Part shown: piece after piece, positions 8,061 through 43,347 of the stretch
Position numbering within the stretch: the stretch's first letter is position 1
How the letters are laid out: each line of letters opens with the position of its first letter
Assembly: GCA_030141605.1 (NCBI GenBank)
Contig: JAQGDQ010000002.1
Location: forward strand, 1,364,001 to 1,428,000
Source: Tubiluchus corallicola
Taxonomy: Eukaryota > Animalia > Priapulida
Length of the DNA: 64,000 nt
Direction of reading: 5' to 3'
The notes under the pieces: generated by a model
Databases searched by the model: none
Seen by the model: only the letters and a program-made list of their open reading frames with translations
What the model was told of the DNA's origin: nothing
Position numbers and translations under genes: made by a program

Positions 8061-8229
8061 GTGTGTGCACCGATTACGACTTCAACTTAAATAAAGGCAC
8101 CGTACCTAGCCAATGCGTCCAAAACGAAGATGTCTCACCTACAGAAGTCTCACCTACCAGATCGTAATTACGATGCCACCTCGAATAGAAAATCTCCCTT
8201 TCCATATGGTTGATCATGCACCACATTTC

Positions 8230-9016
8230 TACAAACAATTCCTAATAGACCAACAATATGCCGACGACATTGGGTGGATAAGCATTCCAAATTCTGCACA
8301 GATACTGTTAAAAAAGAATGCCCAAAATTACTAGAAATAAAGACATTTCAAAGTTGACAACACGAAAACTGAAGAATATACCATTACCACGGGATGGAGA
8401 TCAACCTGAAAACGTTGCATATACTTGGTATCACTACTTTACACGGAAGATGATATCAAAAATGGAAACAACGGGCAATGTACGGTTCTTTCCAAAACAT
8501 ACCAATTCTAAGCAGCAAGAAACTATCCTTAAAACAACGCCCTGACTCTTTATATGCATACGTAACTAGTATCTTTATGTACAACAGCGAAATATGGGGC
8601 TGCAATGCAGCAAACAGAAATAAAATTGATGTGTTTCACAGAGGCCTACTCAGAAAAATCTTAAAAAATAAAATGGCGATATATCTTTTCAAATGAGCCA
8701 TATAACAGAACCAAAGAAGAACAAGACAGATATGACGTCAAATGAGATTGTCAGAAACAATATCAGTAAGATAGGTGATAAACGAAGCACTGAAACGTGC
8801 TAAGCGACCTTCAGGCAAACCAAAAAACAACCTGCATATCAAAAATTAATAAAGACTTACAATAGCTAAAATAAAACTTGACAACAGCATCACATGCAGG
8901 AATAGAAAATTTTAGCTGCAGACAGGAAACAGTGAAGTGCTCTAGCAAAGTATACAGGCTCTATGTCTACAATAGATATTTAGAGCAACAGGAGAAGAAG
9001 AAGAAGAAGAAGAAGA
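8230..9016 (+). mobile_element. Decayed RTE-clade LINE 3' end with (GAA)n tail
   Basis: RT catalytic QYADD at 8254-8268; YAYVTSIFMYNSEIW..IDVFHRGLLRKIL; frameshifts; GAA-repeat tail at ~8992-9016. Confidence 0.75.
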
Positions 9017-9139: not shown

Positions 9140-9367
<228 letters not shown>

Positions 9368-10692: not shown

Positions 10693-10762
10693 CCAGATCG
10701 TTATCAAAAGAGTTTTTCACTCCGAATAAATATTTTGGAATCTTCTTATCAAACTTGTAATA

Positions 10763-18088: not shown

Positions 18089-18109
18089 ATGATGTCAGCT
18101 GACTCATAA
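18089..18109 (+). promoter_or_regulatory. Upstream ORF (MMSADS*) whose stop overlaps the spectrin start codon (TAATG)
   Basis: ATG ATG TCA GCT GAC TCA TAA at 18089-18109; main ATG at 18109-18111; probable acceptor ttttctag at 18066. Confidence 0.45.
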
Positions 18110-21100
18110 TGAGTGGAACAATAGAAACTAAGGTTGGTAAGCGTGGCTCACAGATGCGTGATAGCTACCATGATGATGCAGCAGCTACTCAGCGAATAAA
18201 GCAACTGCAGAGTGAGCGCATTTATCAGCAACAAAAAACTTTTACCAAATGGATGCAAAGTATTTTCAAGAAGGTGATGTATCGTTTAATTTTTTTGGTG
18301 TATTGTCACATAGTGTGCATAGGTTGAGCCTCTTAAGTTATTTTTAAGGATATGTGTACCACAGAAATAGCTTTGTATAATTAAAAATTACGAACAGCTA
18401 CTTTTACAAAGTTGTAGTCATGTTTAATAAGCTGGCTAATCAGTGATTTATCATTGGTGCAGTATTGTGCTCAGTGCAATGGTCTATGTTTGCATTTTGC
18501 TATGCAATTAGCTTGATCTTTTATTGTAGTACTCACATGCTCAACTGTATCAGGAGTTAGCAAGTTACTGCCAACAGCATAATGAGTAGTACAATCATTG
18601 TACGTGTTTAGAAAGTTCCAAGTTACCTATTTTGGCTGTAAAGGCTGAGATTGCAATTGGCAAAAAAATTAGCTCAGACATTTTCATATCCAGTTAAACA
18701 CACTTTGAGAGCATTTGTTATTCATTATTAGCAAGCATCTTTTCTTGTCTTTCAGGCTGGGATAGATTTGAGTGATCTTGACATTTTCAAAGATTTGAAT
18801 GATGGAACACTTTTATTAAGGCTGATGGAATTGATATCTGGTGAGGATGTTGGAAAACCTAATCGCGGCAAAATGAAAGTACAGAAAATAGAGAACCTGA
18901 ACAAAGTGCTTAAATACATTTCGTCAAAGGTATTGAATACTTCTGAAAGATATTTGCAATTAATGATTTTTGTGCAAAAATTGTTATGGTAACCTACCTT
19001 AACAAAAAAATGCTTTTATTATCAAGGAACAATTTTTTGTAGCTTTTGAGAACTATTATTTTTTTATACTTTCTTGAAAATGCTACTTCGCTATTTAGAA
19101 CTATTTTTTGTGGTAGTCTGTCAATTCAAAAACTGGATAATTTATTTAATATTTCTTACCTGTGTTATTTTAATTTTTGAAAAAGAGTAGTGCATTTATT
19201 ACGAGCTGCCTGGATAAATTGACTTAAAATGTTAGTTTGATTATTACTTTCCTATAGTGACATGTAAATAGTTCATTCGGTAATTTGTTCTCCTTTTTAA
19301 TTTTGTTGAAATCTCTGTATGAAAGGTAGGATATTGTACATTCAAAGTTATTAGACCAGTAGCACTCAATTTATACTTGTAGTAGATAATTCTGTAGCTA
19401 TACACACATATATGTAGTCATATACTATTCTTCAGGGTTAAAAAACGACTTTCCATATTCTGAAACCATTCTTCATTGGCAGCTGCTCAGAAAGTCTTTT
19501 GAGCATTCAAATTAATCATGATCATTCATTTAGCCTTTTGTAATCCGTTTAACCTGAGTGCATTGACGGACAAATGTAGGCACATCTCTGCTTTGATGAA
19601 TAACTATAAATCCTTCTTACATACCTTTGTATTGTATCAACAAGATAAGGCTACCGATGACATGCTTTTTAAGTACAAACTGATTAATACTGCTTGCTCA
19701 GTAAACGGTGAACACATTAAATAGGCACTCCTTCAGAATTCTATTCACAAGTTTACTGGCAAGTATGAGTATGCCCCAAATAAAGAATATTATATTCATT
19801 AATAATTGTACTGATTTAATAATAAAATTGAAATCATGTTATTACCTTTTTAAAGTAAAAAATTATTTAGTTGAATTACTTGTCATTTTATATATTTTTG
19901 TAGATTAAAATTTGTGAAAATTTGCCAGTAAAAAATGAAATACAGTACGCATCGTAATTTTAATTTACTGTTACGTTATTTATTTTACAAAATTTAGTTT
20001 ACCTACTTTTCAATGTTTATCTTTTGCTATATTTTATAAATATTTTAAACTTTCTTTTGTATAAACCATTTTTAAGTCTAATTTAAGCAGTTGTTATCAA
20101 AATACAAATTTGAGGTAACTATGTTTACGCTTTTGTTTCTTGACAATAGACGCGGTTGGAGAACATTTCTGCTGAAGATATTCTTGATGGTAATCCCACC
20201 CTTATTCTTGGCCTCATGTGGACTACAATCCTTCGGTTTGAGATTCAAGTTATTCAAGAGAATTTGGTATATTTTAGTACATTTTTAAAACAAGAACCTA
20301 TCATAGATAACTTGAACCTGTTCTTGCGAAAGGAGTTTGATTTTTCTTGTGTTCACAACAGCAACATCGATGATGATAATGCGTAACAGGACTGACCACT
20401 TAGACCCCATTCTCGAAATGGGTCCAGTTAAACATTTTAGAGAACATTTGAGAGGATTGTTGACAAGAAATGTGAAGTTTTTTTTATTTATGTAGGAAAC
20501 ATGACTAAAATGCCTTTATAGTTCATGTTGCTAGAATGTTCTTGATGAGAACTTTGTATGATGAAATTCTGATTAGTCATTTTGGTAAAGCAGTTATAAG
20601 TTTAACACAGATGGCCAGTTTCAATATTATTTTGAATGCTGTGTTGAAAAGCTGTTTTCGATTGTAACGTCTGTCACGTAGTCTTAAGTTATTAGTGTAA
20701 ATTTATTAACTAATGTAATGTGAGTTTTTTATGCTGCAGGAAAGATCGAGAGCTGAAGAAGGGGAAATGACACTGCAAGAACTCGGTGTTGATGAAGCAA
20801 CTCTAGAAGAAATGAAAGTAGGTGAAAGGAAACTTAGGTCTTTCCTTTGTCAGTAGCTTTATACATTTAAACTTGTTTAGATTTACCTGTCCTCAGGCAT
20901 TATTACATTTACTAGCTAAACCCTACAAAAGAATTTTGTGCAAAACCAACAACTATAACCATGTCCCATCTCACCATACCATACCACACCCATCACAACA
21001 TCTACACAACGCCACCCACATTATACGACTTGCACCATGCCATCAACACCATGCCACACCTACCACACCATCCATACCGCACCACATCAGCTCCCCTGCT

Positions 21101-21995: not shown

Positions 21996-24900
21996 GTAGT
22001 CACTTAATAAAACCACAGATAATAAAAGCAACTGCATTTTAGAACTACTTAGGCAGGACCCAAAATTACTTCCATAGAAACAATTGCTAACAAAAATTCA
22101 GATAATAAAATCAGTGCAACAAAATGTTCAATAATAGGCAACAATAGCAGAATGAAAAAATAAAATGTTTCTTTGGTAGTTTGCGCATTTTTTTATGATA
22201 CGCAGTGAAATTTTCGTCTCGTGTTCTAGATTTGCCCCTTGTTAGTCAAAATCATGCTGAAAGTTAAAGTCCTTAGTTTCAGTTATAACTGTTCTGCATA
22301 TCCAGCTGCTAATAAAGAGCATTTTAGTCTGTTGAATGAACTTGAATGACTATCGTATGCTTGAGTTATTCTGTAGACATGCTAGTGAGCTGACTGCCCC
22401 TCGTCTGTATGAGCCTGTAAGCAAAGTTTTTATATGTAACATGTTGAATTAGGTCAGGCAAACATATTAAATTTTGGATTAATCTTGCCAAATATAGGTG
22501 TTTGCAATAGACCACCACATAATAAAACCACCATTTATTAAGACCACTTATAGATGGTCCTGTAGTGGTTTTATTAAGTGGCGACTACTGCTATCCAAAT
22601 ACCAGCATAATTAATATATGCTAGATGTCAGGTTTCTAATACTCTTAAAAGAAATACAGTAGGCGTCGCTTAATAGACTCACTTTGGGACCAACGTGTTT
22701 TGACCCAGTTAACCAACTGAACCTATTAACCGATGGGTGTAGTATTACAGGTATAGAAGTATAAGTCATCACCTTACTATGCACTGCAAAGGTTTTTAAT
22801 TAATTTTAGACATGTAGTAATGCATAAATTCCTTTGTGCAGTTAAAAACTAGAAAAAATATTTTAAAATATTAATTTATATAAGTGAAATAAATTAAAAA
22901 GTATACTTTTCGAAATCACACAAGTCTGTTTTTTTGCGAAAATTACAAAAATTCCTTCAAAGTCGGCTGCTTCATTTTCTCGCGAAGAAGTTGGCCCACA
23001 AATTATAAAAACATTGGAAATCTGTTGTTGTGCATGACTAAAACAGTTCTGAATTGTCTGCTCACTTACATTGCCTGCATTTGCTGTATGATGTTTACGT
23101 AAGTCACGAGGAATACCTGCTGATTACTGTACCTGCATCTTTGACTGTTAACTGATTAAGCCTGAAAGCGTGATTTGCAACGAGAGCATCAGAAGGAAAC
23201 TGCTAGGCAAATGATTAAATGTTTAGCTTCCAGAAATTCTTTGGGTAACAGTGGACGAGCGGGTAACAGATTCAAAACAAAATCGCTATGCTAGCCTATT
23301 AGTGCATAATAAATGTACCTGCTTATAAACAAAACGGTACTTAACATGATTGTTTCTGTAGACATAGCGCACAAAAGAGAAGTAAAGATGACATAAAGTA
23401 GGAAAGGTTCTTTTGGCACATACAAATATGTTATTTTAAGCAGATGAAGGAAAAATATTGAGTCAATTATGCGGAGTTATTTGAGTCAAATACCAATAGA
23501 TTTACGTATATTTGAATAGAAGCGGCCCGTTCTAGGCGTTTTTGAGTCAATTAAGCGATTAAGTCTATTAACCGTGTATCTATTAAGCAGTGCCTACTGT
23601 AGTAGATTAACTAAAAACTAGAGAAAAGTGTTGACTAAGCTTTTAAGCAAAAGTCATTTTACAACTTTTCTGAAACAATATGCATTAGTTATGTATTTTT
23701 AATTTAATTTAGTATACAAAAATTTTAAAACTGGGGCTCTTAAGCTATTGCCACCAAAAATTTGTTTATTATATCCAGTTACTCGTATAATTTTTGTTAA
23801 GTTCTATAGTTACATTGCAAATTAATAACTCTGTTTGGTATGGCAAGTAAAGTGATTGTAGTTATTGAAATATTGTACTTGCAAACCTTTAACTAATATT
23901 TCACTGCTAGACATATTCCCCACCAAACGAAGTGTTGGTAGAGGATATAGTAGAAATTTATGTATATGCATACGTGTTGTTTGGAATGTTTTATGTTATA
24001 TCTCTGAAGCCACTGAAGCAAGTCTCACATATATATTTTACTAGTAAAAAATGTCACTTTGATTCAAATCATCATTGACTCATCATTGTTTCAAACTTAT
24101 TGTTTTGAGTTATATTTTTATGGCCAACGTAATTCCACATGATACATGGATGATACTAGTGGAAGAAAGGTTTGCTGAGGTGCACTTGACTTGACTTTGA
24201 ATCATAAAAACCATAAGGCTCTGTGTTGCATACAAAGATTTTGTTGATATTTTCATGGCCACTGAGGTCAAGCCAGTCAAGCTTTGGAACAAAGGTACCA
24301 AGCCTGTTAGGGCCAAGATTGGTATGGTACACTTGGTGTTGACTTTTATCTTAAAGATGGTAGGGCCTCGTATTATAACTTCTGTAAACATTTTAGATGA
24401 TTCACTTTTTATCATTTTTTAACATTTTTAGAAAAAATATCCAGAGCTGTTTGGGACTACTGATGCAGTCCAGCAAGCACTAGCAGAGTTGTATTTATCA
24501 ACAGTTGACCTTGACACAAAACTTGGAGATCTTCCTCCAGTTCTTACCCTCCGTGACCTTGGTGTAAAGGATGATAATCTTCCCGAGGGAGCTTCACCGC
24601 ACACAACTCTTGCTGATTTGCCTGCTGAGATGACTCTTCGCGATTTAGGATTTACTGAGCATGATATGCCTGCAGTAAAAGATAGAATACATCGTAGCTG
24701 TTTAGTTCACTGTGGATTAATTTACCAAGATGTGATGCCTAACACGTTAAACACCAGTACAACTTTAGGTGAACTTCCTCCAGATATGACATTACGTGAT
24801 CTTGGCTTAGATGAAAAACAACTAGCAAAAAATGTTTCTCCTGATATAACGTTGAAACAACTATCGTCAGAATACCAACTGAAAGATTTGGGTTTTAAAG

Positions 24901-27900
24901 ATGAGGAATTGCCAAAACTTAGGGATTCTGCAAACAGGTCTTACCAATTGAGACACGAGCCAATATATGCCAATGTTGTGCCAGTTAACATAAATACAAA
25001 AACGATGATGAAAGAACTGCCACAGGATTTGGAAGTGCGAGACTTAGGGTTGCATAAAAAGAACATCCCTAAGGAATACTCTGATACTATGCTTTTAAGA
25101 GAGCTACCCCCAGACATGACTTTAGCTGAGTTGGGTGTCCTAAAAGAAGATATTCCCAATGTTCAGAGAAGTGCTAATTTGAATTACACACTGCGCCATG
25201 CACCAGTTTATCGAAATGCTATTCCGGCAGATATTACGCAAGAGACATTAGTTAGCATGTTTCTAGAAGATATGACATTGAGTGATCTGGGAATAACAAA
25301 AGAACAACTTCCTGAAGCTGTGTCTACAGAAACAACTGTTCGAAATTTACCAAAAGGCATGAAAGTAAGAGACTTGGGGTATGATGCCAAAGACTTGCCA
25401 GTTGTCCGGGAGCATGCAAATGCTACTTATCAATTGAAGCACGGACCAGTCTACAGTAATGTTTTACCGGCAAGTCTTAGTCCTGAAACTAAAGTAACTG
25501 ATCTTCCACAAGACCTGACACTGAGAGAAGTTGGAATCAAAGAGCATCAGGTACCTGCCAAGGTTTCCCTGGACACTAATTTAGAAGAGATGCCAAATTT
25601 TATGACGTTAAAAAGCTTGGGTGTTGAAAAGGAAGACATACCTCAGATTCGAGATTGTGCTATGCATTGTCATCAAGTTAAAAATGGTCCCTTATATTGG
25701 GACTGCTTGCCAATTGAGATGACTCCTGACACGAAACTGAAAGAATTGCCACAAGACATGACTTTAAGGGATTTGCAAGTGATTGAAGTTCCTGCAGGTA
25801 TGTCTGCAGATACCATGCTGTGTGATCTTCCAGGTAATCTCACCTTACGTGACCTTGGATACACTGAAGCAGAAATACCTCTGCTGAGGCAGCACGCTAA
25901 TCAAAATTATCAACTTCGTCGTGGTCCTGTAATAGTCACTGAGTCAACTGCTGTGCATCAGTTGCCACAGAAATTAACCTTGGGAGAGATTGGCTTGTCA
26001 GAGGAGCAGATAAAGCAGCTACCAGGCAGTGTCACACAGGAAACAACTTTAAGCGAGCTGCAGCAGGACCTAACACTTGCTGATCTTGGTAAGTTGTACG
26101 TGATTTTAATTAAAAAATTCTAATTAATGTATTATTAACACTGTCATTTATTGTATTATCTTGATTTGCATATTATTTTTTGGGTCTAACTTTGTGCAGG
26201 CTTGACTGACTTACTGTGATAGCCATAGAGTTGTTGTTTATTAACAGTCATTGGGTTTATAAATTATACTACAAGCAGCTTCAATCTTCTGTTCTTGTTA
26301 CATACTAAGAAATTTCCAAACATTTTTATATACTGGTTTTTTCTTTTACTTACTCTTACTTCTGGAAACCAAAGAAAAGTTTGTGAATTACTTTTGAGCT
26401 AGTTTCTTGTGAACATTTTAGTGAGTTGTCCAAGTATAAAATTCCCCTTGTTATTATCTCCTCTTTTATGTAGTTAAACCCCATTACTGATGTACATAAT
26501 ACTTTGCCTTGAAAATTTCCCATTTTATGTTCCTGTTAAATTTTAAAAACTTGGATTCTTGCAGTTAGCCTGAAATATACATTTAGACTCACATTATCGA
26601 AGTATTGCTGTAGTCTAATTGTAGCATTAGGTAGGATAAAATGCATATTTTTGAAACACCAATTTGTTTCAGTCTGGTTGTTTAATTTATTCTATTTTAT
26701 GTATCTACTAAGTATATGTAGTTTTGTACAAATTATTTTTATTTTCTAAGTAATTTTCTAATACTAATTTCTGTAAGGCAAAACTGGGATCCTGTGCAGA
26801 CATTGCGAGTTACAGTGGTTCCTTTTTTGTCTGGCACAGTATCAACATAAAATAATATCTGTTGGTTGAGTTATTTATCTTTGCACTTTTCTAGCATAAC
26901 TTTATTTGCTTTAGACCTTTGGAATGCAAATGTAACAGTGAGTAATCTAGGGATTTATATCAGTAGTAGCATTTTATGAAAGTAAACTCGCGCTACCCTT
27001 TTGAGTACAGTAGGCTTGTTTCAAAAACAAATGGTGTAATGGAAATCTCTCATTTTGCTGCATTTTAATTGTTAGCAAAATTTGGCACTGATTGTTAATT
27101 TACTGGTGAAGAAATTGCAATTGAAATAATTAAAAAAAATTGTGTGGGACATTTAGATTAAGCATAATCTGAATTAGTGCATAAAATTTAATTCATTGGA
27201 AATAATACCCGGACATGGTAAGGTTTTTTAAGTAACAGCTTTACCTACTAAATGATTAGTGTTTGTGATAAGTGTCTGTGTGAACCTGACTCTCTGCGTG
27301 TCTCCCACACCTGCATCTCCTGTTTGCATTGGGTGCTAACTCGAGTGGAGTTAACTCTAGTTGGTAATGAGTTGGTGATCATCTTGAGGACCAAGATATA
27401 ATTACCTGCGCTCAGGAGTGCGCTGCTATGTAGGTAGTGAGTACTCAATGGGTTTGCAGACACGGCTGCAAAGCCCTACCCATGTGCTTTTGCAACAAAC
27501 GAATTTAGATGGTTCCGGGCCATCTGTCTTTCTACTCGACTGATATCACACCCATTTTTGTAGGCTTCGAGGTTTGTGACCCTCTTGGCCCAAGCCAGCT
27601 CTTTATTCCACACCGGTGCCGATGCACTCATGCTCACCAGCGAGTCTGGCGAGGCTTGCATACGACTGAGCATCTTGACCTTCATCAGAGGCACATCCTC
27701 TTCAAGACAAGAAAACCCTATTCTGCCCTTTTTCATGGACAAACTCATTTGATCCAAGAACAGGTTGAAATTTGGGGCCTTCAAAAACATAGAACAAAGT
27801 TAATGGATTTAGAGATTGAAGAGCCTTTTTGACGTTTTGTTTTTCTGTGAAAAAAGTTTTCTCTGTTTTGTATACAGGTGTCAATGAGGTTGACGGTGTA

Positions 27901-30900
27901 CAAAGAGTAAAAAGCGTTGCTAATCCCGACCCCATTGCGACGAAGTACTCCGCTGTGGAGCTTTCTGCTGATATGAAACTTTCAGAGCTGCCTGAAGGTG
28001 TTTCAAAGGAAATGCTGGGCATTGACGAGGAAACTTTGAATAAATACATTGTAAGTTGCTAAACAAGTAATACACTTGTTTAATTATAAATCAATCTATG
28101 TAAGCATGGTTTAAATGCAACTTTTATTAAACGTGGCTGTTCGAATATACTGAAAAAGATAACATTACATATATTGATTTTGTTAGTTTACTGACTTATA
28201 GGAATGTATAATTTATGAGACCAGAGCATGATGTTAGATCTAGTAAATTTTCCTTCAAGTGAGTAGGTATTGAGTTGCACAAACTAACTTGTCTTACTTT
28301 AACATTAATGTAGGCAGAGAAACCAGAAGGCAAAGAAAAACAATCTGCAAAAGAGGCCCTCTTGATGTGGTGCAAGTCTAAAACAGATGGGTATGCAGAT
28401 GTTTGAATGGCTTTCTTTACTGTAATAGTTTATTGTATTTGAAATGTATAATATTTTTGTGATACGATGCTAAATTTTGAAGGCAATGATGACGACATTG
28501 ATAGGAATTACTGGAACACTACAAAGACAAAATTTTTGGTAAATCGCTGGACATAATTAAGATTACAAAAATACAGTTTATCAAAGTAAATTTGGTACTA
28601 GTGCATTGCATGTGAAAGGATGCAGCCTGTACGTTTGCTGCTTACACATAACGCAAATGCTTAATTTTGATTTTTTATAACTGCTTAACTAGGCATGAAA
28701 ATTGTGAAGTGCAGAATTTCTCTCAAAGTTGGAATGATGGTATGGCTTTTTGCGCTCTTATTCACACTCATAGGTAAGAAATATTTGTTACTATATATTT
28801 CTGAAATTATACCAATTTCATACTTACTATATTTAATTAAAAACAAATAGTATTTTCTTGCTTAGTGTCACATGACTAATTCTGGGTTAGTATTTTTTCT
28901 ATGTAGAATAACACTAATTGACAGGACCCAATTATTATGAGGTGGTTATGTTAGACTAAAATCGGGTAATTGGTATCTCGCTATGATGGGTAATCCTTTA
29001 AAATGAGACATCGAACTAACAAACGTATCCTAGTTGTGTTTAGCTATATGTGCACCCTCCTTATTCCAGATAAATTGGCAGGGTGGTATGGCAGATGTGG
29101 TCGCCTAAAATCAGCTATGTTAAAATCCTTAAATTGTTATTTTATGGAATTCTGTGCTTTACTGTTTTGGTTTCCCTAATTTCAGGCCAGACTTAATTGA
29201 TTACGACTCGCTGGATCCAGAAGAACGGGTTAAAAACCTAAACTATGCGTTTGATATCGCAGAGCAAGAACTGGGTATCCCACAATTGCTTGACGCAGAA
29301 GGTAATTAAGGAAGCTGACACATGCAGTAAGTCCTCATTTAACGACTCCCAGTTTAGCGACGTTTATTTTAACAATGCTGAACATTAGACACCTTTTTTC
29401 ACTTCACGACACACATTTCATTTTAATGACGATTTTTTTACTTTGCTGAAAGCCAATTTGCATTTTATCAACAACTTTTTTACTAAATTTGAAGCATTAA
29501 AACAGCACATATTGCGTTATTCTGTTTTGAAAGTGCAATAGTAACATAAACAGTGCAATTATTATATATATTCTTGCTTCCCGCCTGACTAATACTATAC
29601 TAGCTGCCATTTCTATCAAGCAACCAGACTATGTAGTAAATGATGCAGTGCTCTGGAATGATAAAATTTCCAAGGTCACCTCATGCAGCGCTTGGGTTTG
29701 ACTCTGCAATGTTTATTGTTTAATGTATGCCTAGGCTTAAACCGTAATGAAAGAGAAATGCTAGACAGGTACATATTGGTAAGAAAGATAAGTGGTTTCA
29801 AGCAAGCAGAAAGAAATTAATTAGTAGAAACCATAAAGAAACTCATAAAACATTTAACTGATGTGATTTAAGCAGCATTGAGTTTTGACTCTGGAACATA
29901 CTTCAGTTCTTTTACATTATTTTCTGTGGAAGTTTTGGTTTCGTTTAACGACGTTTCCCTTAACTGCGCATTTTGCTGGAACACATTTGCATCGTTAAGT
30001 GAGGACTTACTGTACATCAGGTTGTTGTAAGTGTAGTTAGCTTTCTAGCTTTGCCTCAACAGGAGGTTGTATTCAATTTGTTTTACGATGTTAGGTGTGC
30101 ACCATGCAACATTTTTGTACAAAAAATTGTCTGGGTTGTTTATTTTGTTCATGGTAACAAACTAATACGTAGATAAGCAAAGGGTAAATAGCTAATAGCT
30201 CTTTTGCTTGATCAGTTTTAGATTATTCATATTCTGAGTTTGCCAGTTGGGTAGACCTGTTTTGTGAACTGTTAACATTACTTTATAGAGATAATAAAAT
30301 ATTGTGGATGTAAACCTAATTTGCTGAAATGCTAAAATTAATGTTCTCGTGTGATCTGTGTTGTCATTGGTGTTATAATTATTCTAGTGGTCTACCATTA
30401 TGCTTCTAGTTCAGTTGTTACTATGACATTTTTAAAGTACCTTTTAGACAATCAGTTTTTTCATCAAACTCGTTTGTCATTTAACAAACTAATTTGATCA
30501 TGTAAACACCGAAACTGACAAACTTTTAATTTGACAAATGAAGTTTGATGATATCAAACCGTCTTCAATTCATCAAACAAAAACTGACAAACTCAGACAC
30601 AACAGTCATTTGTGCACTCGTGACATCATACTGACTGTTCATTTTCGTGCATGTAGGAAGAAATTAATAACAACTAAAAACTACAGTTGGGTCTATTGTG
30701 AAATTTAAATCGGCTCTAGGGGTTCTTTCACAATGGGATTGAATGTCAGATTAACTGCATAATTTGCACAAATGTTAAAGTGCACATATCAAAACTGACT
30801 TTGAAGTACACATTTCCTTCAAATTGCTCTTATTGGATAAAATTTTTCAAAGTGATCTCGTTTTTTTCTTAATGTTGTCGTTATTAATTCAAAAGGACGG

Positions 30901-33900
30901 TATAAATATGCATCAATCAGCATTATTTGAAGCTGGCTGACACTGGGACCTGGAAGGTAGAAGCGGTAGTAATAAAAAGGAAATTCTGATTTTGCTGTAC
31001 TGTTTTCTACCAATTCAACTAACGAATTTGTGACAGTACTGTAGATGTGTTATACAGGCATTGCTTAGTTTGTGTTTAGCTTCATGAATCATGGCTTCCT
31101 TTGAGGATCTAGTCAAAAATTGCGGGTGTAACATATGTATATAATTCAAAAGTCACTCGGCACCTCAGTTTTTAGCTCTCTCAAAATCAGGCAGTAGCTC
31201 TCCCTTTCGATTCTTCGCTGTAGTCGTTTTTCATCCAAACTTTTCTAACTCTTTCCAATTTCTCGTTTTCTAATTGCACAAGCTAGCACAACAGGCAATA
31301 AAGCATCTTCACATGTTGGCACCATAAAATTTGATGTCACCTCTAAACACGTATCATTTGTTAGATTGACGGTTTTTGTTTGTCAGTTTTAGTTTGACAG
31401 TTTAAAAACTGGTCGTGTAAATGGACCATAAGTGATCTTACCTGCTACATGATTCTACTAAAGGTTGCTTTTCCTACTAATGATTTTTGAGAGTAAAAAT
31501 GGTGTTTGCTATCAAGTTCAAGTCCAAATAAATATTAACATGATATTTTATACCTCTACAATGCTGTTTAGTTTCTCATAGACCCTTTACAGATATGCCT
31601 AAACTGCTTTATGCATTAACGACAACAATAATAATAAAAAAGTAAACACTTGCAAGATTGGCTGTGCTCCCACTGCACATGCATTTGTGTGAATTTATTT
31701 GAGCTCTGTATTTATAGGCTTGGTGAGAATGTAGTTTTAGCAAATGAGTTTCAAATACAGCTTTATTTTTTCTGTTACAGATGTGGCTGTTAAAAGACCA
31801 GATGAAAAATCTATTATGACATACATTGCCTCTTATTATCATACATTTGCTAAAATGAAAGACGAAAATACAAGCAGTAAACGCATTGGCAAGGTAAATG
31901 CTGATGACTTTAGACTAGCCACTGTTTTTAATCATAATTGAGATAATTGCCATTTATCAGTAATGGTGTGTGTATCTTTGTTTATTAATTGTTGGCGATT
32001 CATTTCAAGTCTTCTTATCAGTGCAAAGTAACATCATGCAGATTATGAACAAATATAAGTTTTTTTAATGCTTGAGATAAATTTGATATGACATCTGAAA
32101 AAACGTCAATTACATTCATGGATCAAAGTTGCATGTTGAGTTATGTTTACTTTGACTAAAAAACTCAGCATCAGTATGTATCAATATAATGCAATAAGTT
32201 TATTTTAAAATGTTCTTACTTTTAAAGGAACTTGCCCAAGTCAGTATGGCTTGCGTACTGTCCGCAGGCCCATTCAAAGAGTTTCCTGTAATTTTATTCT
32301 TTTTGTGTCTTGTTTTTATTCAAAGTTGTGACTAGCACTGTTCACATGAGCAATTTGAAATTTAATGAATTTTTGTTAACAAAAACCTGTATGTTTGGCT
32401 ATAGTTGCTTTTTGGCTGTATTAATTATTAGCCTTAGGTAAAAGTTTGTTGCATTTTAGATAGTAAATTTCATGATGGACATTGACGAACAGAAGGAAAT
32501 TTATGAACAAAGTGCCGACGAGTTATTAAAATGGATTCAGAATAAAACTGCTGAGCTGAATGATCCCAGTTTACCAAATAGCATGGAAGCTACACACCAA
32601 GAACTTGCAAAATTCCACGATTATATTAGAGTTGAAAAGCCACTAAGGTTATCTGAAATCTTAGTTTATAATATTACTATTTCTTGAAAAAACTTTTTAA
32701 AAACCACATTAAGTCTGCTATTTAATATTTTTGCATGAAATGATATTATTATTGTTATTGTAGAGTATAGAGAACAGATTTAAAATTCATTCTGCACAGC
32801 TTTATAGTTTATGCCAATGGTCTTTCATTTTTACTTACATTTTGTGTACACTTACTTTCATATATGACTGCCTTTGTGACAGTCATATGCCATTTTCATG
32901 CACGTAATTGTGTACAGAACAGGTATAGGTCACTTATTGATACTAAAGTTTACCACGGCTAATATAGCTTAAGTCATTCGAAAAAATACATCACTTCAAA
33001 AATGCGAAAATTTCATCATGGTAAGTAAAGCTTAAGTTGTTTTTAACGTTTATTCTGAACTTTTTTTATTACAGAATGTTGTGCAGAACACTTCATTATC
33101 ATTAATCTTTCATTGTGCACCACTATAAAAAATTTTTATTCATTACAGATACAAGGAGAAAGGCGAACTTGAGGCACAACTGTTTGACATCCAGACAAAA
33201 CTTAATGCAGAGAGTCGTAGTTACTATCAACCGCCTGAGGGAAAACTTGTTAGTGATGTTGAGAAAGCTTGGCAGCAATTGGAGAAAGCTGAACATGCAC
33301 GTGAAGTTGCTCTGCGAGACAACCTAAGAAGGTAAGTGTCACATTTATTATTGCCAATCAGTCCCTTCATTGTGTTAGTATCACTTTATTTAATCATTGT
33401 CAATCATTTGATTTTTTCCATCATTAGGGAAGAAAAATTGGAACAGCTAGCTGAGAAATTTAATAGGAAGGCAGAGCTTAGGGAGTCATGGCTTGCTGAT
33501 CAGAACAAGATCCTTGATAACATGCCTATCGGCGAAACGGCGAAAGAAGTGGAGTTGGCAGCAAAGAGACATGTAACCATGACAACTGAAGTTCTTGCGC
33601 GGGTACGTTTACTTTGCTATGGCTTCCTGACTGCTAAGTTGTATTTGGGAAGCATGTAATGGCAGGCGTATTTGAGACTGTCCATAATCCTTCAGTAATT
33701 CACATTTTAAAAATATTAACCCTACAGTATTTATGTTGGGGACAATAGTATTGTGACACCCTATGAATATACAGAAGTGTTATATCTGACTCCTCCTTAT
33801 AGCTAGGATTACTTTCCAGTTAAGAAAATATTTTTAATGATTCCGAGAGGACAAGAAGCCTTTTCTTAAGAAATTAGTTTTTAATATTTTTTAAACCAAG

Positions 33901-36900
33901 CTGGGCATCAGTTTACTTATAATAATTATAGTTTAATTATAGACATTCTTATTTTAGTTAAGTAAAGTTTCATGAAACAAATTTAGACAATATTAGCTCC
34001 ATTCTTGCTGGCTTTCGTTTGTCCTTCTAACAAGTTTTGTCAGATTAGTATCAGTAGTAATCAATGAAATTCAATTTTTTGGCTATTTGTTTTTGATTCT
34101 GGTTCACTGACTAATAATCAATAATGGTCTGCAGATGATCTGTTGTGATTTGTTAACACATAAAGTGTCAGTCAAGGACAAATCTATTTGTTTTACACTC
34201 ATTTCTATTTTTGCTTTTTTTATTAATGTAGAAAGACAGATTTGATTTGCTGAAAAAAATGGCAGAGCATCTTGCAGAGGCAGATTACCATGAGACAACT
34301 GTAATTAAAGCAAAGTAAGTTACTTCATGAAATGTTTAGTTGTTTGTATGAATGATATTCTATTTAAAATAAACTATTTGGGATTATTTTGTTTTGATTT
34401 TGATGGCCATTGGGCTTCCTTATTATATAATTTCCTTTTGTGGCTTTCACACATGCGTCTGGTAACGAACTCTTCAGTGCCGTTAACATTTTGCAAAAAT
34501 TGTTATTCCAGAAGTAATAGCAAAACAAATTACTGTACTTGCTATGAAGATATAATTGAATGTATGTCTTTATCTTAAAAACAACTGTACGATTAGCTTG
34601 TCAGTAACAAAAAATTTGCTACAATAATTAGAAATGAGAGGTTCTGTTGTAATGGACTCGTAATGAATTAAGACAGTTAGGGCTATTAAGACAAGCAACA
34701 GTTTTTGTAGTAACTCAATATGAATATAAATATGAATAACTCAACTTAAGTATTTCTGTCTTAAAATACTCATTACTCACCTCAGTTATTGCATACTTTT
34801 AAATTTGGTTTTAGTGACAGTGTTTTTTAAGAGAGATGATGCAAAGTACAGATTTGCTTATAAGTAGCACTTAACAACAAATGCAGTCTGAAAAAACTTT
34901 ATAACTCAAGATTTTTTTTTATTATTTTGGCAATAATTGCACCCTGTGCATAAATACTGAATAAACTCTACTGTACCACTTCTGTTGGTCACTAAACCTA
35001 TGTAATATATTTGACTACTTTGCTGTATTGGTGTATGCTGTATTAAATTTACACATGAAAAATTATATGTGTGCTTGTATAGCAAAATCGTCAATAAGTC
35101 GGCAATTAAGCTTTTCTAGCTATTCATATGTCCTGATTCTCCATTTCATGAGGATCATTTTGATACCCAGCTTATCGCACGGTATTATTTCTAAGCTGAG
35201 ATAATCCACAATGAAGTTGAGGAGCACGCTACACAGTGAAAAACATAATCTTGAGAAAATCGCAGTTAAAGTTCGCCATTGTTTTTTGTCGTGTTTCTTC
35301 AAAACATTTAGCAACCGTACTAATGTTGGTTGCTACTGACTTTGCAAGAACTCGTTGAAGTTATGTTTAAATCTAGTAGATGGCTCTTCCTGATGAAGAC
35401 CTGGGCTTGGCAACGGAAAAAACCCGAAGCAAAATGACTGCTTCCACGAGCTACTATCGGCGTTTGAAAATACGAGTTTTTTACAATTGCAGTACTAGTT
35501 TCTAGACAGAAAAGTGGGCACGGGTTTAATAGATTAGATTTTTAGTATTTCTTAAAAATTTTCTTGACAATCTAGTGCTAGAATATTAAAGTCCAATATA
35601 TTTAGAGTTTGTTTTTTAAAAACCAGAAATTGGCATTTGACCACTCTGCTTTCTAGTTTGAAGCATTCTACTTTGAAGCATCATAACGTAGTTTTAACTA
35701 TGCCAACTTATGGATGGTTTTGGTTTGCAAGCACACATATGAAAAAATTGCCAGAATGCATGTTTTTATTTAGTTTATTACTTTACTTTACTTAATTAAA
35801 TTTCAGACATGAAAAGATTGCAGATGAATGGCATAGCCTGCTGCTTAGAATGAATGAAAAACAAAATAGTCTGGACAATGTAAACTCTGTCATATCACTG
35901 ATGAGGGACATTGATAGTCTGAATTCAGAAATGAAACATTTGGAGGTAATGTTTTGTTTATTCTCATTTTCTTTTCTACATTTATGTTTCTCCTGTAACT
36001 TTCAGGGCAAGTGCTAGTTTTTAAGCTGTGTGACAGGATAAGCTTTTTTGCTACTGATGAAGAATATAAGTGATGGCATCAAAAATAAGTACATAATAGG
36101 ATATCTTACAGAAATAGTCACTAAAAATGTTTCTACTGGGTTGCTGATCAGAATTTAGATTGTAACTGAGATGTTTCTCCTTAATTTTTATAGCAAAATT
36201 AGTTTACAAATTAAAGCAGTCAGTATTTAATTTAGTCGTTTTAAAAACTTCTTGTCACATTTCTTGCCAGGAAGCCATTATTTATAGTTCTGAAGTTTAC
36301 TTTCAACCAGTGCTTTCCAGTGCGTGTTTCTCTACTATTTTAAATTGCTGAAAATACAAATGCTGGCTTTGTATAATTGCTTTTTTTGTCACTGAAACTT
36401 TTGGAAAAAATAAATGACAACATGTGAAACAGTTTTAAAGATTCTTCTTAGTTAACACAGCAAACAGTGAGGGAACTAATTGTGATATAAACCCTTTTAT
36501 AACTGTGATTTATCAGAAATGTTTGTCATTGCAGCCTGGTGTAGACTCTAACGTAATGGGCAATGAACTTATTGCTGCTGATCATTTAGTTGAGAAACAT
36601 GCCCTCCTTGACAGCGAGGTCAAATCAGCCGGAGAAAAAGTGAACATCTTAATTGAAAAAGCTGAAAAATGGACACAAGAGAATCCTGCTCTAAAGAAGG
36701 AAATTGAAAGAATGGCAGACAATTATGCACTGTATGTTTTTTTTTACTAAATTGGCTTATCTTTCTATGTCATTTGAAGACTGACAAAATGGAAAAATTT
36801 CTTTAACATCAATTTCAAAATTTTCTGATTTGCAGACTACTGTAAATTTTGCTTTGACACTTCAAGAGTTTGTCTATTGACACTACTACTAGTGCTGCTT

Positions 36901-39900
36901 TATAATATAAATTAATAATACACTTTTCCCTAGTTCTTCTTAAAAAAATAATTATGCAATTTCTCTGTTATATATGATAACAGGTTAAATGCAAAAAGTG
37001 AGAAAAGGAAAGCTGATTTGGCAGAGGCATATGCTTATTACAAGCTTGTGGATGATGCGGAGCAAGAGGAAGCTTGGTTAGCTGAAAAACAGACTTGGTT
37101 GAAGCAAGCTCCGGAACCCAGCCGAGATATCTATGCCTTGTACAGGCAGCTACAGGCACACGATGTATGTGATGCAATAATTTTATTTCTTTTAATTTTT
37201 AGTTTATTTTTGGTGTAATCTAGAGTTTAATCTATACTATTTACATCTATAATATAAGCGTATAGGTAGAGTTCGTAATAAAAGAGTATGAAGAGGCATG
37301 TGAAAGGGAAAGGCTAGATCGATAGATTGAATATTTTAATTTGCATTGCATTCTAGAGTGGCATTTATGTAGCATCCGGATGCGGATGTAGATGCGTTTT
37401 TCACCTGCGGAATAGAGTGCGGAAAAAACAATAGGAACAGCTGCAGAAAAAGAATAACACAAATACGGGCTGCATAAATGGGTGCATTGAAAACAATAGA
37501 AACCGATTTTATCTATTCCGTGCCTCCCAAAACGCATCCGCATCCAGATACTACATAAACACTTCTTTAGCATGTATAATATGTTCTAAAATGCTTCACA
37601 ATAAAAAATGCAAAGAGTAAAGACTACAAAAAAAATAAGAAACACCACTACAAAAATTCAATATGTAACAAGATCGTACACAGGCACTAAAATCAGATTT
37701 TCTAAAATATTTCATAATAAAGATCCAAAAAAATAAAAACACACATTTTAAAATTCAATTTATAATAAAATCAGACTAAACTCGCGTGTTAATTGAAAAT
37801 AAGATATTGACAATATCGACTAGCCTAGGAATCTGACTAAACAGCTAAGTTTTAAATTTTGATTTAAAACTGCTGAGGTTACTGCACATGCTAAATTCAC
37901 GAGGAAGAGCATTCCAGTAAGTAAGAACATAGTATCTAAATGATTGCTTTTGTACCACAGATAATGTTGAAAGAGGTTGATACAGAAATGGACTACTGTT
38001 ATGTCTTAAACCATGAGAGTTGGGTTGTGTTGGTAGACAATGTCATGTATGTGTAATTTGGAGTCTGATTGTTAAGTATTTATAAACGATAACCAGAAAT
38101 TTAAGTTGTATTCTAAATTTCACAGCTAGCCAATGTAAATGATGTAGAACTGGTGTGTTGTGGTCGCACATACCTGTACATGATATTTAATGTACAGCTG
38201 AGTTTTATACATGTTGAAGTTTTAAAATATTGTATTCCGGCAAATAACAGATGTTGCTGAAAAAACTGTTACAGTAGTCTAAATGGGAATGCACCAGGGC
38301 GTGGACAAGAATGATAACTGAATCACGACTAAGAAATCCTCTAATCTTTCCCAAATTATAGTTACAAAATTGGCCTTATTGCAAACTTCAATGATATTTT
38401 TGTTGAAACAGGATGTATGTATATGAACTAATTTGTTTCTTGACTACTTTGTCAATGTTGGCTAGAATAGAATGACTACACTTTGCCTTGTTTTTTATTT
38501 TTAGGCAGTGGAGGCTGAGATGCAAGCACATGCTCCAGTAAGTAACACTATCTGTGTGATGGGTTCACGAATGAATCAAACCAGTTATCCGCTCCGTGCA
38601 GCCGAAGTCAACAAACACATGAACATCTTGCAGGAGGAATGGCACAAACTTAAATCGTCTGTTGCTGCTAGGAAGATTAAGTTAGAAGATGCGCTGGAAT
38701 CTGCCCAGGTAAATTATTGATAATGTCAATCTTTAGGTCACAGGCTAAATTCACCTGTCCTGTTGAATAATGGCTAAATTGACCATTATAGTTATCAGTT
38801 TATTTGCCAACAATTGAATGTGCATGTTTTTTATTCATTTATTTTTACCCATTTTAGGTATGTGAAAATTGGGGCAGACTCGTTTTCCTAGAAAAGTTTT
38901 TTGCCAGAAAAATTTTTCCCCCAACAAAAAAAATTCACAGAAAACTTTTTTTACTTCCCAAAAGAAAATTTCCCAAAAAAGATATTTCCCAGAATTGCCA
39001 GTTCCTAGAATTTTTTTTTCCCTGAATCGTCATGTCATGGAACAGAAAATTCACAGAAAATGTAATAAATCTTTTTAGATAATGTGCAAGAAAAAATATT
39101 TTATTTTAACTACGTGTATTGATTAATAGGGAACATATAATAATAAAAATGTTCAGATCTTTAGGCAAGAAATTAGATTTGTAACATCAGAACTATTAGG
39201 TAGTGAATAGTGTTGATCTTTGCATATACCCAAGAATGAGTGATCATGGTGTGCCATTCGCTACCAAAGTTAAGCAATGCCAAGCCTTGCAACTGATTTG
39301 TTGGTAGACCGCTTGTAAATATCAGTCTTGGGCAGTTATTTTTATTGTGATTCCAAATTATTTCATTAATTTCATTGTTTAGAGAAGATGAACATGCATT
39401 CGAATGTGACTGTGACTTCTCAGTCAGCCCAGTATTTCATCTCAGAGGATTATCTTGATAATGAACTAGGATCTGGTCCTGCCATAAAAGAACTCCTAAA
39501 AAATCTTCTGATGGAGCTTAATTTATTGGGCAAATGTTGACCCCAAGTCGTTAACAAATTTGTGTGGTTTGCAAAGCCTTGGTGTTTTCATTTTTTATAA
39601 TTGTTAGTTGTAAAATATATTTCAAATCCTAGGAAAATCAGTTTGGAGTGATTACATGCAGCAAATGATACAATGCCAATTACTGTCAGAAATCAATGTT
39701 ATCTTAAAACCAAGTTTAAATTGTAGCAACAAGTTTCAAAACAAAATATTTTTTTCAAAACATAATTAAAAAACAAGGTTGATAGGCATTATTTAAAGTG
39801 CTGTAGATAACCAAAAGATAGCAAAAAGAGAAAGAATTAAAGGTATAGAGTAAGGGGAAGGGGAGTGAGATGGGGAAGGAGAGAGAATATGAGGAAGAGA

Positions 39901-42900
39901 GAGCTAGAGGAGGAAGAGGAGGAGGAGGAGAGACTGAAAGAGAGAGAGAGGGGGGAAGGAGCAAGGGGGAGGATAAGAAGGTAAAAGAAGGGAAGAGAGT
40001 GAAGAGGGAGGAACAGACAGAGCCGTGATTTTTTTGTCGAAAAATCTTTCTAGGAAATATGTTTTTCTGTGAAATGAGTTTTCTAGGAAAAATATTTTCT
40101 GGGAAAAAATTTTCTGAAAGTTATTTTTCTGCAAAATGGTTTTTCTGAAGGCTTCTGAGAACAAACCTAAACCATGAAACTTTTAGCTGCAGCACTGAAG
40201 CACTTCTATGAGAATTAAGATAGTTGTCATGGTTTGCACTGTGCAACTAACCAACTTATTTTGTTTAGAGCAATTTCAAAATCTGACAAACATAGCATCA
40301 AGTCATACTGTTCCTATTCACAGTAGTTGAATTGTGGCCTAAAAGTGTGCCACTTTATTTTTTGCACCATCTTAGTAAGTTTCCTTTAACAGTATACGTT
40401 AAGTTTTTAAGTAGGCTACAAATTTGCTGCGAAAACGTTTTTGTGTTGAAAATTCTCAGTTAGTCTTCTCAATGATGGTCTTTTAACAAAACATTAATAT
40501 TCAAAATGTGGTTGCATTGAAGCTCTTAAAAAGGGTTTTCTTACTTAGCGAAAAGCATTGTCTTTGTTGTTACTTAAAAATATGGTAATTGTACTCTTTT
40601 AGCAGAAAACAGTAAAGTCTAACAATGTTAATTCACTACAAGTTTCATTAAGGAATTGATAACAACCTTTACTTTTTCAGTATTACGCTGATGCTGAAGA
40701 AGCAACTCAGTGGATAAAGGAGAGAATGCCATTAGCAGCAAGTGATGATTTTGGACGAGATGAAGCATCAGCACAAGTAGCTGCCCCATTTAATTTTGTT
40801 ACTTTTTTTATTGACAAGTGATGATTTGTGCTTTAAAAATAAACAACATCTTAATAAGGCATTTGGGCTAGTGTATATAACCAGTTGTTCGAAGGCATTC
40901 TGCCAACAAGAAAGTTTTCTCCTACTTTAGTAATGTCTTATTGTTGTGACTGTACTGATTTAGCTGCAGTATAGTAATACTTACCAGAACCATCGTACAG
41001 TGACGAAGTACATTTGCTAGAATTATTTGATTTACGATTTTGTATGGTTAATCAGAAAGGTTAATTAAACAACTGGTCTAAGTGGCCTAATTGGCTTGAC
41101 TTCTTGTGTCAAACTTTCATGGAAAATCAGCCTTAGCAAACTTCTCACTGAAAAAAGGCTCCTAACACCTTCATTAACTGCTGTATGCTTGCAGAATGTT
41201 TTAGTTCTGCTTTAGCAAGATGAACTTTCGCTTTGCTGACGTAATCATTATTCTTGAGTTGTTTAACTTTATATGATTTTGTTACTTGAACATATTGTAA
41301 AAGTAAATTGTTTGTCCGTAGGCATTACTACAAAAGCACAAGATTCTTGAAGAGGAGATTCGTGCTTATGATGCCGACATACAACGCCTCAACAACTATG
41401 CTACTCTCATGACACAAGATGCTCAACAACACAAGGCACGTAGAATAAATTTTATTAAGAATTGTAATTAGAGAATAATTGTAAGTGGTTTATAACATGA
41501 CGATTGTTTTGGGATTGTCATCAGAAATTTCATGTTTTACATGTATAACGCATAAATAACAGATTAACAGTGTGGTGGCAAAGTTTGAAGCTGCTAAAAG
41601 ATTCCTGCTTATATGAAAGCTAAGATTCCAAGGCCTGTGTCATCAGAAAAGTTAAATTCTTATCTAAGTTACAATATATCTCCTATTTTTAGAATAAGTT
41701 CTTACATAAATACCTATCTTCTTAACAGATGTCATTGGCATGTAAAAATTCGTAATTTTTGCAAAGTTTCCTGCACATCTATTTGACTTTTTTGGTAAAG
41801 AGTTAAAATGATAACTCACATACTAAGATCATTACTTGAGGCTATTTTGTGTAACAATATTCTTGTAATAAGTGATTCATAACTAAAAAATTTTTGTGAT
41901 TAAGATCAGCTTAAATGAGTTTTCAAAAACTTTATAAGATATTGTTAGCTGCTACCACTGATCAGTAATTTATAATAGAAAATTTCGTTCAAATTGTAAA
42001 TAACAATTATGTTTTTAATGTCTGCAGATTCCGCCTGAATCAGCTGTGAAGAGATTACAGGAAGAAGAAGGAACATCTGCTGGTGGGGAAGAAGAGGAAG
42101 ATGTGGAATATCACCTGGTAAAGATAGTTTTTGGCAATCAACACATTCTTAGCGTGAAAAATTTGTGAATTTTTTGTTAACAGCTTTGGCTTTCTTTTTG
42201 CCAGAAATTTTGCCACAAAATTAAAAATATAAATTTACAATATAGTAAATCTTCACTTGGGAACACCTCATTTAGTGACAATAAATTTTGACATTTATGA
42301 GATTTTGGCATTTTTTAACAAGTTTAAAAACAATAATCTGTGCTAAGCTGCAAGCATTTAAGGCACTCGAATGTTTGTTTTATGCCAGTCAGATATTATT
42401 GATTTTTGGTACTGGAATACATTTCTATACACTTACATTTTTGCTTCTGGAATGCACATATTAAAGATTTGCTTAACCCACTGCATTTTGTGTGAACACA
42501 TTGGTATAGTTATTTAAGGCCTTACTGTAATTGGATCTAGTTTATTATATGTGTTTTAAAGTATATTTACCAATTTGCATATCTCAAAGTTCTGAACATC
42601 AGATATTAGTTCTGGATAAAAAAACATTGTTATCCACAGATTTCACTTAGCTAGTAGCTATCATAATAGAAAATAAAGATTATGGTTTGGCGAGAGGAAT
42701 AGCTGAATGATTCATTATGTGTGCTTGTCGACAGAAATAAGCAGTGCTAGACCTGGTTAGTAAATGGACCGGTGTCTGGCGGAAATTGCTAATGAGAGTT
42801 TTTATCTGCTATCCTGTGCCTCGACCATGTCTCTTGTTTAGGTGAAAATGCCAACCAAATGGGTTAGTGTTTACGCATCCGACATGACCATGAGACATTT

Positions 42901-43347
42901 CTGCTAGTTCAATGTTTCGTCTCAGAGGATTATGACAATGAGATGGGTTCTAGTGTCGTCACAAGAATCTGTATTAATTAAGTTCTGCTACTAAGTGCTA
43001 TACCCTAACTAGCAAAGTTGCTTACAAGTAAAGATGAGCTTTACAAGATTCTACTTTTCTTACTAACATAAATAACTATGCAAACAAAGTTAGTGCAAAA
43101 AATCTGTTTTCAGTAAGTGTTATCACAGCTGTAGGCTCTGTGCTTTTAAACAACATCCCTAGATTAGCTTAGCTTCATGAAACCTAAGTATTTTTTTGCA
43201 TTTACAATATAGGTGCCAGTCGAAAGTGAAGAAGAAATAGAAATGGTAATGCAGGTGATGGAAGAATTTGTAGAACTGAAAATCTCTCCTCGAGTGAAGA
43301 TGAGATACCCGTACAGCGGACATGGTGTTGATGTCAAGAAAGGAGAG
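18109..43347 (+). CDS. SPTBN5: Beta-heavy spectrin (karst/sma-1/SPTBN5-like), 5' part: CH1 - repeat insert - CH2 - spectrin repeats 1-5 - start of SH3
   Basis: CH1 exons 18109-18273, 18756-18929, 20150-20266 ([29 protein letters not shown]). Insert exons 20740-20817, 21280-21311, 22377-22416, 23911-23937, 24432-26088, 27878-28050. CH2 exons 28314-28390, 28693-28773, 29186-29301, 31781-31893 ([38 protein letters not shown]). Spectrin-repeat exons 32460-32647, 33149-33331, 33428-33602, 34232-34314, 35807-35945, 36535-36731, 36984-37164, 38505-38708, 40681-40776, 41322-41435. Then 42028-42117 and 43213-43347 (acidic linker, SH3 start [20 protein letters not shown]). All phases chain correctly: 876 aa without the insert, 1545 aa with it. 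An SH3 inside repeat 5 is diagnostic of invertebrate beta-H spectrin. Confidence 0.88.
20945..21165. repeat. CA-rich low-complexity tract (CACCA/CAA/GAT degenerate)
   Basis: Degenerate ACCAT/CACAC and CAA repeats. Source of spurious His/Pro/Asn-rich ORFs. Confidence 0.7.
21961..21992. repeat. (TA)n microsatellite
   Basis: TA run. Confidence 0.9.
21994..22590. mobile_element. Degenerate Tigger/pogo-like MITE termini
   Basis: CAGTAGTCACTTAATAAAACCAC at the left, and the inverted GTGGTTTTATTAAGTGGCGACTACTG at the right. Confidence 0.5.
22657..23599. mobile_element. Tigger/pogo-type (Tc1/mariner superfamily) non-autonomous element
   Basis: TIRs CAGTAGGCGTCGCTTAATAGA / TCTATTAAGCAGTGCCTACTG, flanked by TA on both sides. 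Confidence 0.85.
24432..26088 (+). CDS. 1657-nt spectrin insert exon encoding ~6.5 copies of an 81-aa repeat
   Basis: Stop-free. Acceptor tttttag|AAA (phase 0) and donor G|gtaagt (phase 1) match the next exon at 27878. Units start at about 24504, 24747, 24990, 25233, 25476 and 25719 (243-nt period). Confidence 0.85.
27250..27830 (-). mobile_element. Fragment of R2/NeSL-type (RLE) non-LTR retrotransposon
   Basis: GC-richer patch. Minus translation [42 protein letters not shown] resembles the post-RT and decayed CCHC-knuckle region of R2-group elements. Confidence 0.55.
29325..30012. mobile_element. Tigger-like MITE
   Basis: TIRs CAGTAAGTCCTCATTTAACGA / TCGTTAAGTGAGGACTTACTG; right flank TA, left flank TG. 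Confidence 0.85.
30436..31430. mobile_element. Decayed PIF/Harbinger-like element
   Basis: Degenerate inverted ends (GTACCTTTTAGACAATCAGTTTT / AAAACTGGTCGTGTAAATGGACC), subterminal AAACTGACAAAC repeats, and a minus-strand RKVWMK remnant like a Harbinger transposase N-terminus. Confidence 0.55.
37352..37570. mobile_element. Small Harbinger-like MITE
   Basis: Inverted arms TTTATGTAGCATCCGGATGCGGATG / CATCCGCATCCAGATACTACATAAA. Confidence 0.7.
37820..38400 (-). mobile_element. L2-clade LINE 3' fragment
   Basis: Minus translation [15 protein letters not shown] and [14 protein letters not shown], typical L2 ORF2 C-terminal motifs. Confidence 0.8.
39260..39500 (+). mobile_element. 5S rRNA-derived SINE-like copy 1
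   Basis: AAGTTAAGCA..GCC..TGGTAGACCGCTTGTAAATA resembles the 5S internal promoter. Core TTTCATCTCAGAGGATTAT is shared with the copy at 42.9 kb. Confidence 0.45.
39845..40020. repeat. Polypurine (GA/GGA) low-complexity tract
   Basis: Almost exclusively G/A for ~175 bp. Confidence 0.9.
42690..42970 (+). mobile_element. 5S rRNA-derived SINE-like copy 2
   Basis: TAAGCAGTGCTAGACCTGGTTAGTAAATGGA compared with 5S TAAGCAGGGTCGGGCCTGGTTAGTACTTGGA; core TTTCGTCTCAGAGGATTAT. Confidence 0.5.

Follow-up and report, generated by a model that had tools for sequence, protein, structure and literature searches.

The window analysed here is a stretch of 64,000 nucleotides from the priapulid Tubiluchus corallicola (GenBank assembly GCA_030141605.1, contig JAQGDQ010000002.1, positions 1,364,001 to 1,428,000 of the forward strand), animal genomic DNA of ~34% GC in whose own coordinates all positions below are given. 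On its forward strand lies a gene that we identify from domain and structure matches as a beta-spectrin, in which three exons (D, E and F; Table 1) encode a 636-residue in-frame insert, built of 81-residue repeat units, in the linker between the two actin-binding CH domains (CH1 and CH2). An initial annotation made from the letters alone had recognised the repeat array but missed the main point, its location between CH1 and CH2 and the fact that skipping it preserves the frame.

The host gene and its repeat array

Pfam and PDB matches show an N-terminal tandem CH1-CH2 with spectrin repeats right after CH2, the Pfam Spectrin family matching nine exon open reading frames (ORFs) from 32460 to 41468 (E 6e-7 to 1e-3). 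The same order of CH1-CH2 and spectrin repeats is found in the beta- and beta-heavy spectrins (Karst in Drosophila, SMA-1 in C. elegans, with human SPTBN2 as the structural reference). Residues 2-35 of exon C align to residues 132-165 of a beta-III spectrin chain (6anu_f, E 7e-8), and residues 2-24 of exon G, whose best PDB matches are beta-spectrins, align to residues 168-190 of the same chain (E 6e-4), which therefore places the insert in the CH1-CH2 linker. In beta-III spectrin numbering the last residue of exon C is 169 and the first of exon G is 167, and a direct join of the two exons would exceed the linker of 6anu and 8iah by three residues. In these two entries the stretches matching exons C and G are adjacent, whereas here the array lies between them.

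The host is probably a beta-heavy spectrin. Its spectrin repeat 5 is interrupted by a very acidic stretch (42028-42117 and 43213-43280), and the exon at 43213-43347 presumably resembles the start of an SH3 domain, although no Pfam or PDB match supported an SH3 assignment for that exon. The SH3 domain of beta-heavy spectrin sits in repeat 5. This interruption and the possible SH3 start point towards the beta-heavy class; an SH3 domain in the rod is described as a mark of that class (PMC6233056). In the remaining 20.6 kb of the window (43348-64000) no spectrin-like exon was found, and the spectrin exons thus end at 43347, in the middle of the possible SH3 domain, either because a very long intron follows or because the gene is truncated; the base skews beyond this point retain the sign of the spectrin gene, a weak hint of a long intron. 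About five spectrin repeats fall inside the window, where a beta-heavy spectrin has more than 17, and for the remaining parts of a beta-spectrin (full rod, tetramerisation site, PH domain) no exon appears between 43347 and the window's end.

The array itself is carried mainly by exon E, whose frame (24432-26123, forward strand) is the longest anywhere in the window. As had been noted, this frame stays open over 1.66 kb: its 552 codons hold no stop, against 17-52 stops in the five other frames, and the probability of such an open frame by chance is 2e-16. The exon opens precisely on an AG acceptor, closely preceded by a stop, has its first methionine only at residue 67, and ends at a consensus donor at 26088, with an in-frame stop 11 codons beyond it. 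It holds five units of exactly 81 residues (starting at 24498 + 243n), a sixth of 72 residues (from 25713) and a partial seventh, each unit being laid out as modules of 29, 29 and 23 residues. Self-identity of exon E at a lag of 81 residues is 0.297, compared with a maximum of 0.134 over all lags in 1000 shuffles, and sub-periods of 29, 52 and 110 likewise exceed the shuffled maximum. A profile of the 29-residue module found 14 modules within exon E; over six frames of the whole window its best matches elsewhere were exon D (E 0.013) and exon F (E 0.023), the next match following at E 0.7, and exon D matched the unit profile with an hhalign probability of 83%. The unit structure first described, with related modules in exons at 20740 and 27878 and about 16 modules in all (14 in exon E plus those of D and F), is thus borne out. 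Tandem Repeats Finder reported no array at the exon E locus among its 23 rows. The depth of exon E in run X1 is that of single-copy sequence (summed contig depth 5-10). Separately, the introns at 22650-23600 and 29300-30000 contain high-copy interspersed repeats (depth >5000 and ~300-500 in the same run).

When the eight splice patterns of the three insert exons were compared, four proved free of stops (skipping all three, D alone, E+F and D+E+F), and exon F keeps the frame only if included together with exon E. The acceptor and donor scores of exon E (8.1 and 8.6) and exon F (8.3 and 6.9) lie at or above the medians of the other exons (7.2 for 17 acceptors and 6.1 for 14 donors, at sites placed by eye). 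We consider it highly probable that the insert exons are spliced into the spectrin transcript, and lean slightly towards the view that the same gene also makes an ordinary isoform by joining C to G.

Table 1. Exons of the putative beta-heavy spectrin gene, in window coordinates
Feature	Position	Strand	Content
Exon A	18109..18273	+	start codon, N-terminal helix region, start of CH1; frame continuous with exons B and C
Exon B	18756..18929	+	middle of CH1; Pfam CH E 9e-6
Exon C	20150..20266	+	end of CH1, phase-0 donor; Pfam CH match
Insert exon D	20740..20817	+	26 aa, phase 0 to 0; a single degenerate module; can be skipped by itself
Insert exon E	24432..26088	+	552 aa + 1 nt, phase 0 to 1
Insert exon F	27878..28050	+	phase 1 to 0; completes unit 7 and adds one more module
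Exon G	28314..28390	+	rest of linker, first CH2 helix; phase-0 acceptor
Exon H	28693-28773	+	body of CH2; frame
Exon I	29186-29301	+	body of CH2; Pfam CH E 3e-8
Rod exons	31781..43347	+	end of CH2, ~five spectrin repeats, acidic stretch, possible SH3 start

Relatives, selection and predicted fold of the unit

Searching a six-unit profile against 1.84 billion representatives gave eight matches at E 0.001, of which three are true relatives (P0002, P0003 and P0004, each at E 1e-74 or better) and five were discarded as compositional; a second search gave the same three, at identities of 45, 53 and 59%. The relatives are single-member clusters from two Logan contigs of 4661 and 3816 bases, and as only cluster representatives were searched, full-length insert-bearing spectrins could hide in clusters led by insert-less proteins. 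P0002 is collinear with exon E at 45% identity, and one and the same frame of it carries on past the exon E sequence into that of exon F. Exon F matches P0002 residues 544-603 (E 3e-9, a score reached by none of 2000 shuffles), and the match stops at the position of the exon F donor, after which comes the valine expected from a read-through GT. Of the independent evidence for E and F as one coding unit, their presence in one P0002 frame is the strongest. P0003 covers units 1-3 and P0004 units 4-6, both on the 3816-base contig. In P0003/P0004 the array appears to be split between units 3 and 4, and P0002 has no break between E and F; introns within the array seem to be placed differently from one species to another.

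Between the window and P0003/P0004 the best cross-species match of a unit was the unit at the same position in six of six cases, as it was in three of six for the window and P0002 and in four of six for the third pair, so that the array should be older than these splits and has escaped homogenisation. Support in the unit tree was mostly modest (2 of 16 branches starred). The 23-residue module shows the positional signal most strongly, with an identity of 0.55 between units at the same position against 0.34 with other units.

Within the array, the 15 unit pairs are saturated at synonymous sites (mean proportion of synonymous differences, pS, 0.75), with a lower proportion of nonsynonymous differences (mean pN 0.43), which therefore indicates selection on the protein. 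In seven pairs saturation was too strong to correct; the other eight give nonsynonymous-to-synonymous rate ratios (dN/dS) of 0.15-0.42, the comparison between units that the initial annotation had proposed. Identity between units at codon positions 1, 2 and 3 is 0.50, 0.67 and 0.33. Simulated neutral change of 5% spared the open frame in 46 out of 2000 runs, and change of 10% in none of 2000. The array is maintained as protein by purifying selection among units. The codon-position bias and the missing Tandem Repeats Finder array speak against a satellite or neutrally amplified DNA.

AlphaFold2 models of two units (3 sequences) reached a mean predicted local distance difference test score (pLDDT) of 84.9 and a predicted template modelling score of 0.48, with a dip at residues 71-80, the unit junction, and models of one unit (9 sequences) a mean pLDDT of 73.3. 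They contain short helical turns at T-L-x-D/E-L motifs and one helix of ~18 residues per unit. Each 81-residue unit is thus predicted to be one compact domain, its turns capped by the T-L-x-D/E-L motifs and packed on the 18-residue helix, and, with the less certain linker between units, six to seven such beads would follow one another along the array. The models, the saturated synonymous sites and collinear relatives at 45-59% identity support the original view of an old, selected and, probably, folded repeat rather than a satellite.

The unit is a candidate new domain family. It had been held not to be a spectrin repeat (~106 residues, three helices, PF00435), and we concur, as no Spectrin match appeared at E 1-10, the period is 81 residues and the models have one long helix. 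A leucine-rich repeat was rejected, no Pfam LRR family matching P0001-P0004; decorin matches to the array reached E 0.016, summed over short pieces. The fold of the unit was also compared with that of the iron-containing alcohol dehydrogenase C-terminal domain (PF25137) and with small helical folds, the YtfE N-terminal domain and 2k53 among them; fold searches with predicted models have no power to exclude a family.

Proposed function of the insert and its alternatives

In tandem CH domains, CH1 binds F-actin and CH2 acts as a steric negative regulator, and opening the pair raises affinity (PMC7688639); CH-domain opening by the beta-III spectrin mutation L253P increases actin affinity 1000-fold (PMC5676748). 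The Drosophila beta-H tandem, which unlike the one described here fits within residues 1-278, binds F-actin weakly and competes with myosin (PMC10328500). We propose that splicing in the three exons would place an array of predicted small folded domains within the linker, where the beads would serve as a spacer parting CH2 from CH1. With such a spacer in place, CH2 would be at a lower local concentration around CH1 and the closed, low-affinity state would be rarer, favouring the open state and strong F-actin binding as with L253P, and the insert may act as a skippable cassette. That the array holds an inhibitory CH2 off CH1 in this way, and so favours high-affinity actin binding, is in our judgement an even proposition. 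The fuller evolutionary scenario, in which an ecdysozoan worm lineage gave rise to a new small fold, amplified it sevenfold and drives it as a wedge, under splice control, between CH1 and CH2, turning beta-heavy spectrin from a weak actin binder into a constitutively open one of high affinity, appears unlikely as a whole.

Several points weigh against the spacer proposal. A flexible array could loop out while CH1-CH2 remains closed, and the exact unit length and position-specific unit identity exceed the needs of a passive spacer. The models were built on 3 and 9 sequences, the placement of the P0002-P0004 arrays in spectrin genes is deduced, and the splice pattern is read from genomic DNA and the open frame of one relative. 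Phase 0-0 flanks are expected for any exon set inside a phase-0 intron and therefore do not demonstrate alternative splicing, and the strong splice sites of E and F, with their obligate pairing, suit constitutive inclusion equally well.

The main rival is a docking scaffold: the array would loop out of a closed CH1-CH2 pair, and its units, held at the actin-bound end, would offer partner sites or pack together. The fixed unit length, the arginine at unit position 61 (present in 15 of 19 units) and unit features that are position-specific across species, most strongly in the 23-residue module, agree with this possibility. However, 17 columns are shared by at least 75% of the 19 units and 15 of these are L, P, G or T, which suggests a structural core rather than a common binding face, and a scaffold could sit elsewhere, whereas the linker site controls actin affinity; we regard docking as somewhat unlikely. 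It is improbable that the array is an extra actin-binding track, each unit contacting one actin subunit and extending the CH1 footprint along the filament by a nebulin-like logic. The regular period and the position beside CH1 would fit, but F-actin is acidic and so is the insert (pI 4.7; 105 D/E against 64 K/R), though the relative P0002 is near neutral (pI 6.4).

Read-through of the exon E donor into the in-frame stop 11 codons on would give a short separate product, CH1 and repeats without CH2 or rod, and spectraplakin isoforms lacking one CH domain exist (PMC3352950). As this donor is a consensus site, and exon F, a conserved exon joined to E in P0002, carries the repeat further, we consider such a product very improbable.

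An origin of the unit as a captured and amplified C-terminal piece of iron-containing alcohol dehydrogenase (Fe-ADH) is just as improbable. The initial annotation had seen a loose resemblance to that region, and the whole 552-residue exon E does formally pass the cut-off of Pfam ADH_Fe_C (PF25137; 31.8 bits against 27), its best stretch being exon residues 331-414 on profile positions 84-174. The likeness fails per unit, where the best E values were 0.029 (2 of 6 units) and, in the shifted register of the Pfam stretch, 0.055 (1 of 5), and none of P0002-P0004 matched at E 0.01. A confident match to an already described domain had been named as what would overturn the assignment, and ADH_Fe_C is one on its face, but it holds neither per unit nor in the relatives. 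No Pfam match to the N-terminal nucleotide-binding domain of Fe-ADH was found in exon E or its flanking exons. In the models the unit middle is proline-rich with short turns, while the Fe-ADH C-terminal domain has long helices in the corresponding region. The likeness consists of two short motifs at similar spacing, and we read the score as these motifs adding up over the repeats.

That the array lies outside the spectrin, as a satellite, a transposon protein or a nested gene in an intron, is barely credible despite the high-copy repeats in the intron preceding exon E, given that the frame opens precisely on the AG acceptor, shortly after a stop, and lacks a methionine before residue 67, that E+F restore the spectrin frame, that exon E is single-copy in run X1 and that selection acts at the protein level.

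Returning to the array as a spacer, the closest precedents known to us differ in size or site. Plectin exons 2alpha and 3alpha are alternatively spliced inserts inside CH1-CH2 that alter binding, but they comprise 5 and 12 residues (PMC7891324), against 636 predicted-folded residues here, whose alternative use is putative. The plakin-repeat exons of Shot B and MACF1b likewise add a long repeat block to some isoforms of a spectrin-superfamily protein, but theirs is a known repeat family in the rod behind the plakin domain (PMC3352950), whereas the present array splits the actin-binding domain. In L253P beta-III spectrin, a possible functional likeness, actin binding is far stronger once CH1 is released from CH2 (PMC5676748); that is a point mutation behind a disease (SCA5), whereas here a long-kept natural insert would have the effect. 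Titles and abstract openings in the literature, with supplements that may hold gene models left aside, yielded no CH1-CH2 linker insert of this kind.

What we see is a real, selected and probably folded repeat, not assigned to a known family, at an unexpected site of a well-known protein. How spectrin-family proteins limit actin binding depends centrally on the short linker between CH1 and CH2 and on the closed state, and forced CH opening causes disease in beta-III spectrin (PMC5676748). A natural 636-residue insert kept across species offers a direct test of whether CH1 and CH2 need to be adjacent, and would show what an always-open spectrin does in the cell; the unit is small and easy to express. 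If the fuller scenario of a splice-controlled wedge is true, the wedge would be a natural, selected counterpart of the state responsible for spinocerebellar ataxia type 5 in humans.

Other features of the window

On the reverse strand, a long ORF at 52810-53565 matches rhodopsin-type seven-transmembrane receptors (E 1.6e-18) and is possibly nested in a long spectrin intron, and exons at 500-1900 read like what we take to be ankyrin repeats. A (TAA) microsatellite of ~63 copies occupies 9180-9367, and broken frames at 8110-8700, 11150-12870 and 49950-50410 are presumably fragments of LINE reverse transcriptase and ORF1. Upstream of the spectrin gene lies a peroxiredoxin-4 gene (10730-14927, forward strand), whose 5' exon lies near 10730-10906 and whose one large exon starts at 14298. 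No named protein matches it closely, the best reaching 84% identity. As a hint from this single gene of a lineage near the priapulids, its relative P0013, with 98% identity over the query, joins Priapulus in a FastTree tree of 46 of the fetched rows (support 96).

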